Assembly (NCBI GenBank): GCA_029856155.1
Contig: JAHQWL010000068.1
Location: 1 to 24,170 of the forward strand
DNA length: 24,170 bases
Reading direction: 5' to 3'
From: Promethearchaeia archaeon
GTDB taxonomy: Archaea > Asgardarchaeota > Lokiarchaeia > Sigyniarchaeales > SOKP01
Both the position numbers and the translations under genes were made by a program. Positions within the stretch are counted from its first letter, which is position 1, and every line of letters starts with the position of its first letter. Below the pieces are notes generated by a model. The model saw only the letters and a list, made by a program, of their open reading frames with translations. It was not told the origin of the DNA and did no database searches. Shown piece after piece: positions 4,666 through 19,058 of this stretch.

Positions 4666-5535
4666 TTATGAAATTTTTTTAATAGATTCTTTCAAAATTG
4701 CTAAAATTTTCTCTCGATACATAGGTTCAATAGCAATCATTCCATGAGTCTTTATAATACGGCTTTCGCTAGAGAGGATTTTTTCACAAAATTCTGGGGT
4801 AAGCCTATTTGGTAAATCTTGTTTGTTTGCAATTCCGATAACTAATTTATCTTGATAAAATTTATCTAATATATCATGGATTATTTCTTTTGAATTGTTA
4901 ATGTTTTCATATGTCGAATCTGTCACAAGTAATGTAATATCAGTTCCCTGTAAAAGACTTTTCCATAAAGATCTGAATTGAGCTTGCCCTGCAAAATCCC
5001 ATAGAGTTATTGATCTTTCAAATTCATCACCATCATAAGCAGCAATATCAGCTGTAATGGTAGGAACATATTCAAGGTCAACATTCTTTCCACAGATTAA
5101 TTTTGTTAATGTAGTCTTCCCAACGCCCCCAAATCCTATAATCGATACTTTAATAGCGCCTAAAATAATATTATCTAATTCATGTTCAAATTCAGTAAAA
5201 ATACTACGATTTCCTCCCCAACTGTCATTCTCAAGAATTTTCCCATACTTATCAATAAATTTTGTTCTTATACTCAATATCTTAGAATTCACAACCGAAT
5301 CATCGTCATCTAAATTTGTACATACTACAATGATGATTACGTCAATGATCGTATAATAATATTTGAAATCCTCCGTTTGTGTACTTTTAATATCACTTTG
5401 ACTGATTTCTTTCATAAAACCTGAAAAGGCACTTAAAAATCCCGCTAACAAATCTCTATCAACGTCAGAACTTCCATAATTCCTGAATAACAGTGATTTA
5501 CCGTCTCTTGTTAATATGTTTATATATTCAATCAT
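4666..5535 (-). CDS. Longin-like domain fused to an Arf-like small GTPase
   Basis: N-terminal ~125 aa has the Asgard longin pattern (INILTRDGKSLL...DLLAGFLSAFSGFMKEI...IIIVVC); C-terminal G1 GFGGVGKT, G2 YVPT, G3 WDFAGQ followed by FRSLW, G4 ANKQDLP. Confidence 0.85.
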   Translation of the reverse strand: MIEYINILTRDGKSLLFRNYGSSDVDRDLLAGFLSAFSGFMKEISQSDIKSTQTEDFKYYYTIIDVIIIVVCTNLDDDDSVVNSKILSIRTKFIDKYGKILENDSWGGNRSIFTEFEHELDNIILGAIKVSIIGFGGVGKTTLTKLICGKNVDLEYVPTITADIAAYDGDEFERSITLWDFAGQAQFRSLWKSLLQGTDITLLVTDSTYENINNSKEIIHDILDKFYQDKLVIGIANKQDLPNRLTPEFCEKILSSESRIIKTHGMIAIEPMYREKILAILKESIKKIS

Positions 5536-6703: not shown

Positions 6704-7282
6704 TTATTCCTCTAATTTTGAACGTAAGGTAAGTTTAGCCATCTTTTCAAAAATTAATTTAACATTTTTTCCTGTTAATGCCGAAGTCTCGAAAAATGGT
6801 TCATCAATTTTTTCACTTAGATGCTCTGCCATGGGCAATATGATCTTTCGCTCTTCATTCAAATCTATTTTATTGCCAATCAAAAGTCGTGGAATTCCCG
6901 AAAGACCATATTTAACTGCGGTTGAAAACCAATTATTTATATTTGAGAAAGAGCTTGAGCGTGTTAAATCATAAACTAACATCATTCCATCAGCGCCGTT
7001 GAAATATGGCCGATGTAACATATAGAATTGAGGTTGACCAGCTATATCCCAAACCATTAGATTAATTTTTGTATCCTTACCCATGTCGTCCTTTATTGTG
7101 ACTGGTTCTTTCGTGATGTTAACACCTACGGTTGGTATATATTCATAATTGAATTTATCACCACAGAAATTTGTCAAAAGACTTGTTTTACCGACGGCAG
7201 GGTCCCCAATCACGATTATTTTAAAAATCATCTCAGTTCGTCCATGAAACACTAACTTTCCTTTTTCATTTTCCTCTGTCAT
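6704..7282 (-). CDS. Rab-like small GTPase
   Basis: FKIIVIGDPAVGKTSL, YIPTVGV, WDIAGQ, YFNGADG, GNKIDL, FFETSALTGKNV; all G motifs intact; no C-terminal Cys. ATG at 7282 preferred over TTG at 7294. Confidence 0.92.
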   Translation of the reverse strand: MTEENEKGKLVFHGRTEMIFKIIVIGDPAVGKTSLLTNFCGDKFNYEYIPTVGVNITKEPVTIKDDMGKDTKINLMVWDIAGQPQFYMLHRPYFNGADGMMLVYDLTRSSSFSNINNWFSTAVKYGLSGIPRLLIGNKIDLNEERKIILPMAEHLSEKIDEPFFETSALTGKNVKLIFEKMAKLTLRSKLEE

Positions 7283-7360
7283 GATTTTTCTCAAATATTT
7301 TTTTGAAATTTTTCAGTTTTTAATTAATTAATTAATGAGTTTCGAATATAAAAATTTTAA

Positions 7361-15367: not shown

Positions 15368-17728
15368 ATGAATGAACGAATTAAGAAGTTACTATCGCAA
15401 AGTCGTACAACAACCCCTTATATTTCCTTGGAACGTGCTTTATTATTAACAGAGTTTTATGCAACTGGTGCAGCTCATATTTTTACTCCTCCAGTTGCTA
15501 GAGCGAAAGCATTTAAATACTTGATGGAAAATAAAAAGATCTGCTTCAATAAAGGGGAATTAATTGTTGGTGAACGTGGTCCAGCACCAAAAGCAACACC
15601 TACATATCCAGAAGTTTGTTGCCATAGTTTACATGATCTAGACGTTTTAAATACACGTGATAGAATTTCATACAAAGTTTCTGAAGATACAAGACAAAAG
15701 GCAGCAAATGTAATTATTCCGTTTTGGAAAGGAAGATCTATCCGTGATAAAATATTCTCCCAAGTTGATGATGAATGGATTAATGCATATGAAGCAGGGA
15801 TTTTTACGGAGTTCATGGAACAGAGAGCACCTGGACACACAGTTGGTGGAAAAAACATATGGAATAAGGGGTTATTAGATTTTAAGCAAGAAATAAAAGA
15901 AAGTATAGAAAGATTAGATTTTTATAATGATCCACAAGCTTTTGATAAGAGAGAGCAATTAACTGCGATGAATATCTCTGCAGATGCGATTATTGCTTTT
16001 GCTGAACGCCATGCTCAAGAAGCTAAAAATTTAGCTAATAAGGAGTTAGAATCAAAAAGAAAAAAAGAATTACAAAAGATCTCTGAGATATGTTCTCGCG
16101 TTCCTGCACAGGCACCCAGAACGTTCTGGGAGGCACTCCAACATTATTGGTTCATTCATTTAGGTGTTATAACTGAATATAATACATGGGATTCTTTCAA
16201 TCCGGGACGCTTAGATCAACATCTATATCCATTCTATAAGGATGATATTGCTAATGGAATATTAACAAAGGAAGATGCATATGAATTGCTCCAAGCTTTC
16301 TGGGTGAAGTTTAATAATCAACCCGCTCCTCCAAAGGTTGGAGTAACTGCTGAAGAGAGCAATACTTATACGGATTTTTGCAATGTTAATATTGGTGGAC
16401 TTAAAGAGGATGGTTCCGATGGAGTGAATGAAATGTCCTATATATTATTAGATGTAATAGAAGAAATGAGGATAGTTCAGCCAAGTAGTAATGTTCAGAT
16501 TAGTACAAAGACCCCCGATCGATTCTTGAAAAGAGCTCTTGAAATAATTAAAACTGGTTTTGGACAACCATCAGTTTTCAATTGTGATGCAATAATTCAA
16601 GAACTGACAAGACAAGGTAAATCCATATTAGATGCTCGAAACGGTGGGGCAAGTGGGTGTGTTGAATCTGGTGCTTTCGGAAAAGAAGCATATATATTAA
16701 CAGGATATTTTAATTTAGTAAAAATATTGGAAGTCACCCTTCATAATGGTTTCGATCCTATAACTAAAAAACAGATTGGATTGAAGACTGGTGGGCCTAC
16801 AACTTTTAAAACATTTGATGAATTATTTGAAGCTTATAGAAAACAAGTAACTCATTTTGTAAATATTAAAATTAAAGGTAATCAAATAATTGAACGAATC
16901 TGGGCACAGAGTCCTGCCCCTTTCCTTTCATTATTAATCGATGATTGTATAAAGAATGGGAAGGATTACAATAATGGGGGAGCCAAATACAACACTTCAT
17001 ATATCCAAATTGTTGGAATGGGTAGCATCACAGATTGTTTAGCTTCTTTGAAATATAATATATTTGATAAAAAAATTATATCTATGGAAGATTTAATAAA
17101 AGCCTTAGATAAAGATTTCATTGGAAATGAAGTTTTACAACAGAAATTAATTTATAAAACTCCCAAATACGGGAATGATAATAACTATGCTGATTCGATA
17201 ACCACACAAGTTTTTGATATTGTTTATAATGCGATCGATAATCGTCCTAATACTAAAGGTGGTGTACATCATATTAATCTACTTCCTACTACGGTTCATA
17301 TTTACTTCGGTCAAGTAACTGGTGCCACACCAGATGGGCGTAAAGCTTATACTCCATTATCAGAAGGCATCTCTCCAGTTCAAAGTATGGATATTAATGG
17401 CCCAACTGCAGTTATTAAATCAGCTGGAAAAATAGATCATCTGAGAACGGGAGGAACTTTACTAAACCAAAAATTTGCACCTCAATTTTTTTCAGAAGAA
17501 AATAAGATTAATAAATTGGGCCATTTAATTAGAGCATACTTTGAAATGGATGGTCATCATGTACAATTTAATGTCGTATCAGCAGATACTTTACGAGCAG
17601 CACAGAAAAATCCGGAAGATTATAGAGATCTCATTGTACGAGTTGCGGGATATAGCGACTATTTTGTGAATTTAGGACCAGATTTACAGGATGAGATTAT
17701 TAGAAGAACTGAACATACCACAATTTAA
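15368..17728 (+). CDS. hypD: Glycyl radical enzyme, trans-4-hydroxy-L-proline dehydratase type
   Basis: RVAGYS glycyl loop, SGCVE Cys loop, plus HypD-type motifs FTEFMEQRAPGHT, WDSFNPGRLDQ, EESNTYTDF, GYFNL and LPTTVH. Confidence 0.87.
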   Translation: MNERIKKLLSQSRTTTPYISLERALLLTEFYATGAAHIFTPPVARAKAFKYLMENKKICFNKGELIVGERGPAPKATPTYPEVCCHSLHDLDVLNTRDRISYKVSEDTRQKAANVIIPFWKGRSIRDKIFSQVDDEWINAYEAGIFTEFMEQRAPGHTVGGKNIWNKGLLDFKQEIKESIERLDFYNDPQAFDKREQLTAMNISADAIIAFAERHAQEAKNLANKELESKRKKELQKISEICSRVPAQAPRTFWEALQHYWFIHLGVITEYNTWDSFNPGRLDQHLYPFYKDDIANGILTKEDAYELLQAFWVKFNNQPAPPKVGVTAEESNTYTDFCNVNIGGLKEDGSDGVNEMSYILLDVIEEMRIVQPSSNVQISTKTPDRFLKRALEIIKTGFGQPSVFNCDAIIQELTRQGKSILDARNGGASGCVESGAFGKEAYILTGYFNLVKILEVTLHNGFDPITKKQIGLKTGGPTTFKTFDELFEAYRKQVTHFVNIKIKGNQIIERIWAQSPAPFLSLLIDDCIKNGKDYNNGGAKYNTSYIQIVGMGSITDCLASLKYNIFDKKIISMEDLIKALDKDFIGNEVLQQKLIYKTPKYGNDNNYADSITTQVFDIVYNAIDNRPNTKGGVHHINLLPTTVHIYFGQVTGATPDGRKAYTPLSEGISPVQSMDINGPTAVIKSAGKIDHLRTGGTLLNQKFAPQFFSEENKINKLGHLIRAYFEMDGHHVQFNVVSADTLRAAQKNPEDYRDLIVRVAGYSDYFVNLGPDLQDEIIRRTEHTTI

Positions 17729-17821: not shown

Positions 17822-17893
17822 TATGTACTTATTCAGTACATAAATTTATAAATGAAAATTTCTTTTTTAATTATATGTACCGATCATGTACCG
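17822..17893 (+). promoter_or_regulatory. Putative promoter/operator: four ATGTAC boxes flanking a TATA-like element
   Basis: Inverted TATGTAC-N7-GTACATA (17822-17842), TTTATAAA (17845-17852), direct ATGTACCG repeats at 17875 and 17886 (11-bp spacing); GAGGTGA at 17907-17913. Confidence 0.6.
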
Positions 17894-17920
17894 TTAATTA
17901 AGAAAAGAGGTGAAAAGAAA

Positions 17921-18691
17921 ATGAGTAAAGAGAAATATAAAGACATATTTAAGATTATAGTTCTTGGAGCGGCTGGAGTGGGTAAAACCACATTAATTGA
18001 ACAATTTTCAGATGAATTTCTTCACAAAGATGCTGCTCCAAAAGTAGGTGTGAATTTTTTTATTAAAAATATAACTATTGATGGCCATAATTATAAACTA
18101 CAGTTTTGGGATATTATTGACGATGAAAAATTCGGATCGCTTCAAACACTATACTATACTGGAGCCTCAGCTGTTTTTTTTATATTTGATTTATCTAGAC
18201 CAGAAACTTTTGATTATTATCAGACGCGCTTTAAGAAAGTTTGGAATCAGATCAGAGATGACAAATGCCCTGTGCTTATAATTGGAAATAAACTTGATTT
18301 AGTAGAGAATCAGAAATCAATTGATAGGGAAAAATTTCGGAAATTTGTTAATAAAGAAGGTTTAATGGGTTATATTGAATTAACTTCAACTAATAATATT
18401 GAAGAACTAGTAAAACAACTTCCCAATATTATTCAAAAAGCTTTAAAAAAGAGTTATCAAGTCAAATTTTTAGTTAATAACAAAGAACTAGAAGATATTA
18501 AAAGATTTGCTAAACTTTCTCATCAGACACAATCAGAATTTATTCGCACAGCAATATGGGAAAAAATAAAATTGATTAACACACCTTCTATGATCGAGAA
18601 TTCAATAAAAAATAAAAAGATAGTAGAAGACAAATTGCGTTTAGACGAATTGAAAAAAATTCGAGAATTATTAAAAAGGTCAGAAGAGTAA
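17921..18691 (+). CDS. Degenerate Rab-like GTPase fused to a C-terminal ribbon-helix-helix (CopG-like) domain
   Basis: G1 GAAGVGKT and G4 GNKLDL intact; G2 (PKVGV), G3 (WDIIDDE) and G5 (ELTS) altered; RHH pattern YQVKFLV-NNKELEDIKRFAKLS-HQTQSEFIRTAIWEKI at 18452-18571. Start set at ATG 17921, 7 nt after GAGGTGA. Confidence 0.8.
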   Translation: MSKEKYKDIFKIIVLGAAGVGKTTLIEQFSDEFLHKDAAPKVGVNFFIKNITIDGHNYKLQFWDIIDDEKFGSLQTLYYTGASAVFFIFDLSRPETFDYYQTRFKKVWNQIRDDKCPVLIIGNKLDLVENQKSIDREKFRKFVNKEGLMGYIELTSTNNIEELVKQLPNIIQKALKKSYQVKFLVNNKELEDIKRFAKLSHQTQSEFIRTAIWEKIKLINTPSMIENSIKNKKIVEDKLRLDELKKIRELLKRSEE

Positions 18692-18853
18692 GAAATTTAT
18701 GAAGAAGCTTTAATTATTAATAATTTTTAAAATTTTTTCTTTTTTTTTTCAACTTTTTCTATTTAATAATATATAAATTCATGAAATTTATTATGGAAAT
18801 GTAAAATTGGTATACAACAATTCAACACCGTTAACAATAATGTAGGAAAATAA

Positions 18854-19058
18854 ATGAGTTTTGATTCAGAATTAAATAAAAATAATCTTATTGATAACAT
18901 TCATATTGAAGAAAAATCTTATAATGCTTTAATTCAATTACTGAAAAAAAAAAACAGGGCTAAATTTTAAATACTATAATAAAAATTTTATAGAAAAGCG
19001 TTTACATACTGTCCGTATCCGGCTGTAATTTTAAGTAATACTACGAAGAATATGATTG
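18854..19058 (+). pseudogene. Remnant resembling a CheR methyltransferase N-terminal domain, frameshifted in an A11 tract
   Basis: MSFDSEL...YNALIQLLKKK, then with one fewer A (tract 18944-18954) TGLNFKYYNKNFIEKRL...RIRL* (stop 19026-19028), then YYEEY; matches the CheR_N pattern LL...TG.dF..Y....I.rR....R.....y.eY. Confidence 0.5.

Follow-up and report, generated by a model that had tools for sequence, protein, structure and literature searches.

What would a Ras-family GTPase do when it is joined, in a single polypeptide, to a fold that usually binds DNA? This question is raised by a gene on the plus strand of contig JAHQWL010000068.1 of a Promethearchaeia archaeon (assembly GCA_029856155.1), a metagenome assembly of 4.1 Mb in 104 contigs. 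The stretch analysed, called here the window, covers positions 1 to 24,170 of this contig (24,170 nucleotides). The gene encodes a 256-residue protein, P0001, in which a Rab-like G domain is followed by a ribbon-helix-helix (RHH) module. As argued below, comparative evidence indicates that the product is likely a DNA-binding regulator, and there is a good probability that it is more precisely a one-component, autoregulated DNA-binding protein, that is, an RHH repressor carrying an exchangeable N-terminal input domain. What the sequences show is the domain composition and its conservation, operator-like sites that have no other intergenic copy in the genome, the exchange of the N-terminal domain, and a covariation between beta-strand and operator core in paralogues. 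DNA binding, repression and nucleotide binding are inferred, as any target beyond the gene's own promoter would be.

The ribbon-helix-helix module and its fusion to the G domain

The coding sequence and the parts of the protein are as follows.

17921–18691, plus strand: coding sequence of 256 amino acids (P0001), from the open reading frame (ORF) and its homologues
17942–18430, plus strand: Rab-like G domain, residues 8-170, from the Pfam Ras match, the Rab12 alignment, family counts and an AlphaFold 2 (AF2) model with a predicted local distance difference test score (pLDDT) of about 80-90
18449–18580, plus strand: RHH module, residues 177-220, with beta-strand KKSYQVKFLV, helix A (187-199) and helix B (204-220, QSEFIRTAIWEKI), from profiles, AF2 and Foldseek
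18581–18628, plus strand: variable polar linker, residues 221-236, with 34% mean pairwise identity
18629–18688, plus strand: amphipathic C-terminal helix LRLxELKKIRELLE, residues 237-256, from conservation and both models

When the whole P0001 sequence was compared with profile libraries, several matches were found below the curated cut-offs, both in Pfam (DUF6290, 4.1e-5; NikA-like, 4.6e-4; RHH_1, 0.019, or 15.4 bits against a cut-off of 20.5) and in NCBIfam (RelB antitoxin, 1.7e-4; aCcr1, 4.6e-4). Among 49 sequences of the module, 47 matched NikA-like (best 2.8e-8), 46 matched DUF6290 and 17 matched RHH_1, and the helix B motif QSEFIRTAI fits the RHH_1 and NikA-like consensus throughout the family. 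A search of 1.84 billion representative sequences with the module profile returned only 70 proteins at E <= 0.001. Ten of the weaker matches were scanned; seven proved to be ordinary RHH_1, NikA-like or CopG-antitoxin proteins, and four of these seven exceeded the Pfam cut-off. Every match of an ESM Atlas feature search (0.82-0.83, to be taken as leads only) that bears a family name belongs to an RHH family.

The AF2 models are of single chains, and hence describe the protomer. Folded alone from a 73-sequence alignment, the module reached a pLDDT of 84.7, with more than 90 in the RHH part; in the numbering of the module, residues 1-15 are extended, residues 16-28 and 33-49 form helices, and a long terminal helix follows. 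Almost all of the top 50 Foldseek matches in the PDB were RHH proteins (TMt 0.7-0.91), including the PutA DNA-binding domain 2gpe_D (TMt 0.91, root-mean-square deviation (rmsd) 1.1 Å), CopG 1ea4_F (TMt 0.84), Arc (0.85), the antitoxins TacA, AtaR and KacA, and NikA, ORF56 and ParD. The protomer of residues 177-220 thus models as an RHH. The original prediction, made from the letters of this locus, had read the C-terminal segment in this way, and it is borne out by the profile matches and by the protomer model, which is confident and has near-exclusively RHH proteins as its neighbours in structure. The YQVKFLV strand, the helix that follows and QSEFIRTAIWEKI, on which that prediction was built, are real and form the best-conserved part of the protein, with a mean pairwise identity of 75% for the RHH module; the terminal helix follows with 72% and the G domain with 66%, and the linker has 34%. 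The terminal helix retains invariant L239, E243, L244, I247, R248 and L251 and is helical in both the full-length and the module models.

The fusion was found again both in relatives and in assemblies made independently. Homologues of full length, more than 55 in number and with 58-87% identity, were collected from NCBI, JGI, ENA and Logan assemblies, and contigs from four runs of four studies bridge the G domain-RHH junction (18404-18720) with no differences. According to their NCBI names, the source genomes of the homologues belong to Loki-, Hod-, Hermod-, Odin- and Thorarchaeota. The source names of close homologues and a search over the phylum both agree with an Asgard origin of the organism. 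When 400 GTDB-classified genomes of the phylum were searched, the family was detected in 54 of the 134 genomes of one GTDB family, including 39 of the 53 genomes of the window's genus; a second GTDB family contributed one positive genome, and the other 265 genomes of the phylum none. The architecture proposed for a search of Asgard genomes was accordingly found, but it is confined to essentially one GTDB family, mostly to one genus, and is not a general Asgard feature. The host genome carries a single copy of the fusion gene, and no paralogue of the module was found in it beyond weak matches (E 0.024 and up).

The same module is also found under a different N-terminal part. In LRR-RHH proteins, 422-459 residues long, leucine-rich repeats (LRR) replace the G domain, and 61% identity to P0001 is retained across the last 96 residues. 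These LRR forms are encoded in the same locus, directly 3' of a 786-residue glycyl radical enzyme gene and behind the palindrome described below, and no G-domain form was seen in the genomes with an LRR form in the 400-genome search. A longer Ras form, of 317-320 residues, carries a linker motif and a coiled coil between the G domain and the RHH module, and the LRR forms carry the same linker. Weaker matches to the module were surveyed at 14 and then 20 further places in related genomes, and most of these places encode proteins of 112-180 residues in which the RHH is combined with a coiled coil and with this linker motif. The linker motif itself, LRSSIMxELKKxxIPxHxNGxYLEKPD, occurs once or twice in the long, LRR and standalone forms (P0048-P0062, P0068-P0073), either before or after the RHH. 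In a tree of the 85-residue module, an alignment with too few columns, the architectures cluster and the LRR forms fall in at least two places. Because the G domain is swapped for LRR or is missing altogether, these sequences indicate that the RHH module, and not the GTPase, is the constant core of the system, the G domain being interchangeable with LRR or absent.

Paired palindromes and the strand that may read them

Three elements were recognised in the region upstream of the gene.

17823–17841, no strand assigned: operator-like site 1, ATGTAC-TTATTCA-GTACAT, with GTAC cores 11 bp apart, from the orthologue alignment and from locus and genome counts
17845–17852, plus strand: predicted TATA box TTTATAAA of the gene's own promoter, read from the sequence and given this role after the archaeal consensus; AAATTTATAAAT is conserved in orthologues
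17875–17893, no strand assigned: operator-like site 2, ATGTAC-CGATCAT-GTACCG, from the orthologue alignment and locus counts

Site 1 ends 4 bp before the TATA box. The distance between the two sites is 52 bp, and site 2 follows the TATA centre by about 26 bp, at the expected transcription start. This geometry would be the usual one for an archaeal autorepressor. The upstream regions of eight orthologous loci (190-220 bp) are divergent save for one invariant block, which consists of ATGTAC-N7-GTACAT, followed by AAATTTATAAAT and, some 52 bp past the first palindrome, by another GTAC-N7-GTAC. Site 2 of the window (ATGTACCGATCATGTACCG) is the reverse complement of the orthologues' AGGTACATGATCGGTACAT, the difference being a small inversion, bounded by the self-complementary GTAC arms, which left the GTAC-N7-GTAC geometry as it was.

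In the first 11 loci, each of 5-13 kb, GTAC-N7-GTAC was found in the promoter of the fusion gene only, with two copies per locus and one in the LRR-form locus L011. When 29 loci of related genomes were compared, the motif was present in nearly all of those with complete upstream sequence, two copies being found in most Ras forms and one or two in the LRR forms, and the two sites were 52-53 bp apart in most loci (range 49-54). Of 11 GTAC-N7-GTAC in the host genome, a number that shows no excess over other spacings, nine lie inside ORFs and the other two are those of this promoter, the sole intergenic copies. The exact form TGTAC-N7-GTACA occurs twice in the 4.1-Mb genome, the second time inside an ORF. 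A recurrent extra match with one mismatch, ATATACTGAATCCGTACAT, was rejected as it lies inside a coding region. It should also be noted that the tetranucleotide GTAC is present at 1.42/kb in the host genome, about half of the roughly 2.8/kb expected at 30% G+C, a depletion that might reflect restriction avoidance.

The sequence of the palindromes was then compared with that of the beta-strand in the paralogues of the module. Standalone proteins with QVKFLA or QIKFLV strands (loci L050 and L052) are preceded by ATGTAC pairs. Genes encoding KFIKVMV or KFIKIML strands are preceded by three to five TGATCA with a period of 9 or 11 bp, those encoding KLIKVLV strands by GATCAT or GACCAT with an 11-bp period, and the single locus with a KQITFWL strand (QxTxW) by three TATATAG repeats. 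Taken as a whole, the 43 loci with a QxKxL strand have a mean of 3.2 GTAC per upstream region, and the 15 loci with an FxKxM strand a mean of 3.6 GATC and fewer than 0.3 GTAC. The outward residues of the strand and the tetranucleotide change together, which is to be expected if the beta-ribbon reads the DNA. The covariation supports such reading, and with it autoregulation, and it would be hard to explain by another factor. The transcription-regulating, DNA-binding role first proposed for the protein thereby receives strong comparative support from the palindromes in its own promoter and from the strand/operator covariation.

Part of the paralogues form a standalone family of their own (L044-L049, L055-L069), whose members are RHH proteins of 112-140 residues with a coiled coil and an LRRxVLKELK..YLxKP motif. 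In their promoters a TGATCA or GATCAT box is repeated three to five times with a period of 9 or 11 bp, and the family is absent from the host genome.

Several results weigh against an autoregulated RHH protein. The scores of P0001 fall below the Pfam gathering score of 27, DUF6290 giving 24.1 bits with the whole protein and 24.8 with the module alone, and NikA-like 20.7 and 23.8 bits, respectively. Nothing significant was obtained when the module profile was used to search PDB sequences (searches A2 and A5), the best matches being uS13 (0.91), RNase H (0.084) and DUF1778 (0.2), none of them significant. In the full-length AF2 monomer the G domain is well modelled and the pLDDT drops below 50 at the beta-strand (residues 179-187) and in the tail. 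All Foldseek E-values exceed 0.08, as expected for a fold of about 45 residues, and are not significant alone. At the level of the DNA, no second target site was found, and the motif with one mismatch was no commoner than a reversed control in 54 genomes. The covariation amounts to about three clades of related sequences, and thus to few independent events, and another factor could bind the palindromes. Lastly, no RNA run is listed among the public runs that carry the sequence.

Neighbouring genes and competing explanations

The reading frame is open in the window from 17852 to 18691, and the ATG at 17921 yields the 256-residue P0001. The resulting start, MSKEK, agrees with that of about 45 homologues of 250-260 residues. 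A 279-residue version proposed by a gene caller (P0002, from 17852) starts within the TATA box and is probably wrong. Two further elements flank the coding sequence.

17907–17912, plus strand: ribosome-binding site GAGGTG, 8 nt 5' of the ATG, read from the sequence; GAGGTG or GGAG is kept in orthologues
18733–18749, plus strand: T-rich tract past the stop codon, a likely archaeal terminator, read from the sequence

The fusion gene looks monocistronic. Scans of the window for tRNA and Rfam families returned nothing.

The gene immediately upstream (15368-17728) encodes a trans-4-hydroxy-L-proline dehydratase, hypD, with 1296.8 bits against a cut-off of 1100 for the NCBIfam model NF043068 glycl_HYPD. 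The order of genes is tryptophanase-like, acyl-CoA ligase, hypD, fusion gene and HAD hydrolase, and it recurs in related loci. The fusion protein could hence be a pathway-specific regulator of the adjacent glycyl radical enzyme gene, as hypD, which scores above the cut-off, stands 5' of the gene for the RHH module, in the same orientation, throughout L001-L011 and in the majority of L015-L043, LRR forms among them. We regard this explanation as improbable. There is no GTAC-N7-GTAC upstream of hypD, nor elsewhere in the first 11 loci, and the hypD upstream regions share no GTAC element. A T-run and a separate promoter lie between hypD and the fusion gene. The Ras-form loci L032 and L037 have other genes upstream, in which no glycyl-radical motif was found, and have nonetheless retained the operator. 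Furthermore, about 11 genomes of the genus bear hypD and lack the fusion; the reverse holds for G189, a genome in a single contig, where the fusion is present and no hypD exceeds the cut-off. As all the loci come from one family, the shared order may be inherited rather than functional. The adjacency of hypD looks like inherited synteny, and a regulatory link between the two genes is only a minor rival to autoregulation of the RHH gene.

Some observations concern the neighbourhood only. The host genome contains seven matches to the glycl_HYPD model, one of them above the cut-off, and no activating radical-SAM gene is present in the window. In one NCBI assembly (L001), hypD is called in two pieces of 439 and 333 residues and a downstream gene of 802 residues as 448 and 347 residues; both genes are whole in near-identical JGI contigs (L002/L003), which points to likely assembly or frameshift differences. 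On the 3' side, only the beginnings of two genes are left in the 730-bp gap that follows the fusion gene. On the plus strand, at 18854-19022, are the initial 45-56 codons of a CheR-like gene, and on the minus strand, at 19119-18997, the initial 41 codons of a Steroid_dh/DUF1295 gene (90% identity). Both genes are whole in orthologous loci, and a deletion of about 1.6 kb has removed the 3' parts of these convergent genes here.

The RHH-like segment might also serve in dimerisation or partner binding only. The palindromes would then be bound by another factor, and the protein would be a small GTPase that forms dimers and does not act on DNA. In line with this, the RHH matches of P0001 stay below the gathering scores, and it is mostly in connection with membranes or the cytoskeleton that the small GTPases of Asgard archaea are considered. 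However, the helix B motif fits the RHH_1/NikA-like consensus family-wide, and the operator accompanies the module under any N-terminal domain, including LRR and the standalone proteins of L050 and L052. Moreover, the operator core changes from GTAC to GATC along with the residues of the beta-strand in the paralogues. The C-terminus (...LLKRSEE) bears neither a prenylation Cys nor a membrane anchor, and no Cys is present in the last 130 residues. An explanation by dimerisation alone is, in our view, unlikely.

An antitoxin-like function is very improbable. In this reading the RHH and the C-terminal helix would neutralise a toxic partner and autoregulate, with the G domain or LRR as the part that is neutralised or that senses. 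The RelB_antitoxin and DUF6290 matches agree with this, as do the best structural neighbours, TacA, AtaR and KacA, which likewise have a C-terminal partner-binding helix, and an RHH followed by a disordered linker and a conserved helix is an antitoxin-like arrangement. Nevertheless, the scores all lie below the curated cut-offs, and no toxin-like gene adjoins the module gene in any locus, the neighbours being hypD, CheR-like, Steroid_dh and HAD genes. The gene is also single copy in each genome, with a chromosomal position that is stable within a genus.

Finally, that a mis-assembly or a frameshift joined two separate genes, for which the 104-contig metagenome assembly is the sole argument, is refuted for practical purposes by the single open frame, the continuous conservation through the junction, the more than 55 full-length homologues and the bridging contigs of four studies.

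The G domain, a possible mechanism and known systems

If the protein is an autoregulated RHH repressor, the part played by the G domain has to be considered. Its membership of the Ras family is clear: Pfam Ras (PF00071) matches residues 11-167 at 7.8e-30 (104 bits against a cut-off of 21.6), TIGR00231 small_GTP reaches 68.6 bits (cut-off 42.5), and Roc (PF08477, 1.7e-20) and Arf rank behind Ras in Pfam. A PDB sequence search identified Rab12, Rab2A, Rab30 and Rab35 as the nearest solved relatives (about 1e-25). In P0001 the P-loop GAAGVGKT and the G4 motif NKLD are intact. By contrast, both switches are altered in the alignment with Rab12. In switch I, STVGVDF is aligned to APKVGVNF, the Thr being replaced by Lys41, and in switch II, WDTAGQERF is aligned to WDIIDDEKF, where the DxxG Gly and the catalytic Gln are both Asp (DIIDD). 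G5 is mildly changed, from ETSAK to ELTST, with the Ser retained.

Residue counts over 59 family members gave the same picture. The P-loop Lys22 is retained in all 59, the NKxD residues in 50-56 (Asn123 in 55, Asp126 in 56) and the G5 Ser156 in 58. At the switch I Thr position, Lys is found in 47 members and Thr in two; D, N, A, H or S occupies the DxxG Gly position, with a Gly in one member; and the catalytic Gln position is D, N or E, and Gln in none. The original prediction had listed an altered switch I Thr and DxxG Gly/Gln beside an intact P-loop and NKxD, and the Rab12 alignment and these counts confirm that description; its statement that G5 is altered too was an overstatement. Pairwise identity in the switch regions (65-66%) equals that of the remainder of the G domain (66%). 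In a second Ras-family gene of the window, on the minus strand at 6704-7294, the motifs are the canonical PTVGV and WDIAGQ. The family-wide loss of switch residues next to this canonical paralogue therefore argues for a stable family trait and not for decay.

Two further Ras/Roc-family genes are present in the window in all, on the minus strand: that at 6704-7294, which encodes 196 residues (Ras, 1.2e-44), and one at 4666-5535 with a 128-residue N-terminal extension in which no Pfam match was found. In addition, an ENA contig of 1320 bases encodes a 276-residue homologue, P0063, whose N-terminal half has canonical TIGVDF and WDVAGEERF and whose C-terminal half is near-identical to P0034; such a protein stems either from recombination or from a chimera in the assembly.

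With G1, G4 and G5 intact, the G domain probably still binds guanine nucleotide. The intact motifs together with the lost switch residues may indicate some form of GTP/GDP sensing. Because the Thr, Gly and Gln of the classical GTP/GDP switch and of hydrolysis are absent, a nucleotide-loaded docking or dimerisation module seems more likely than a timer.

A mechanism compatible with these observations can be proposed. The RHH module (residues 177-220) would dimerise and place its two-stranded ribbon, with Q180, K182 and L184 pointing outward, in the major groove over GTAC, a self-complementary sequence that suits a two-fold symmetric ribbon. The paired GTAC cores of a 19-bp palindrome are spaced by 11 bp, or one helical turn, and each palindrome would thus take two dimers side by side. 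Site 1 would abut the B recognition element (BRE) and TATA box, and site 2 would cover the expected transcription start, so that the promoter of the gene should be silenced when they are occupied. Being 52 bp or about five turns apart, the sites would face the same side of the DNA, and the bound dimers could be linked by the terminal helix, by the G domains or by both. The Rab-like domain would be the input or partner-docking part: the RHH would hold two G domains together, and a nucleotide-dependent contact or the docking of a partner would set the cooperativity on the paired sites.

We advance a wider version of this proposal only tentatively, as a possibility that is more doubtful than autoregulation itself. 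In it, the Ras-family G domain would be the nucleotide-dependent input of a one-component transcription factor. As the RHH forces a dimer, the paired switch-less G domains would act as a dimerisation device that sets the cooperativity of RHH dimers on paired GTAC sites, and the in-place exchange with LRR would mean that ROCO-style modules have been wired directly to DNA in Asgard archaea. To our knowledge, small GTPases wired directly to DNA are not known in eukaryotes or bacteria.

Asgard archaea have large expansions of Ras-family GTPases, which are usually read through eukaryotic membrane traffic and are mostly without known function. The present gene would be a rare Asgard Ras-family case with a concrete and testable output, a 19-bp operator-like site before its own gene. 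If the proposal is true, a switch-less yet constrained G domain that can be swapped with LRR would make small-GTPase modules plug-in inputs to a prokaryote-style repressor. The occurrence in one Lokiarchaeial family leaves little bearing on the ancestor of eukaryotes. The system is small (256 residues, two sites) and could be studied in vitro without culturing. The original prediction knew of no characterised Ras-RHH fusion, and none was found in the literature, which yielded no paper on a Ras- or Rab-RHH fusion; a paper on Atabeyarchaeia names both terms, in unrelated passages. New here are the LRR exchange at the same locus, the standalone forms, the covariation of strand and operator, the confinement to a narrow taxonomic group and the test against hypD.

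Among described systems, the RHH repressors Arc, Mnt and CopG share with the present protein the beta-alpha-alpha protomer, the S-E-x-I-R-x-A-I motif of helix B, and short symmetric subsites one turn apart that overlap their own promoter. On the Arc and CopG operators, two dimers lie side by side on one face, with subsites one turn apart. CopG 1ea4 and Arc 1baz gave the best superpositions (rmsd 1.2-1.6 Å over 40-45 residues). These repressors are proteins of 45-55 residues with no other domain, whereas here, as known from sequence and model, a 170-residue G domain precedes the RHH and a conserved helix follows it. Type II antitoxins (TacA/AtaR/KacA, RelB, ParD) have in common with the fusion protein the RHH, the flexible linker and the C-terminal helix; they autoregulate through promoter palindromes and supplied the top Foldseek neighbours. 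They differ from it in that here no toxin gene is nearby, the N-terminal domain is large, and the gene is single-copy, chromosomal and limited to one archaeal family.

As to the G domain, the P-loop, the NKxD and the G5 Ser of the Rab/Ras family are kept, in agreement with the Pfam Ras match. Small GTPases deficient in hydrolysis have typically lost the catalytic Gln, and the pseudoGTPases Rnd and RhoH may be compared. Unlike Rab/Ras, Rnd and RhoH, the present family has also lost the switch I Thr and the DxxG Gly family-wide, has no lipidation Cys and is fused to a DNA-binding domain. ROCO proteins (LRR, Roc and COR) combine the same pair of LRR and G domain, but the two are alternatives here and are not joined; in place of their COR domain, which was not matched here, the G domain is directly followed by the RHH as the output. 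The closest parallels in design are NikR, an RHH with a nickel-binding ACT-like domain, and PutA, an RHH with a proline dehydrogenase. In both, as here, one chain joins the RHH and a ligand-handling domain, and both regulate their own or neighbouring genes, a likeness to the autoregulation proposed here. Their RHH is N-terminal, whereas here it is C-terminal, and the partner domain is a Ras-like G domain or LRR, such as we found in none of the described RHH regulators. An RHH one-component regulator is thus known in kind, and what is unprecedented is a Ras-like input domain.

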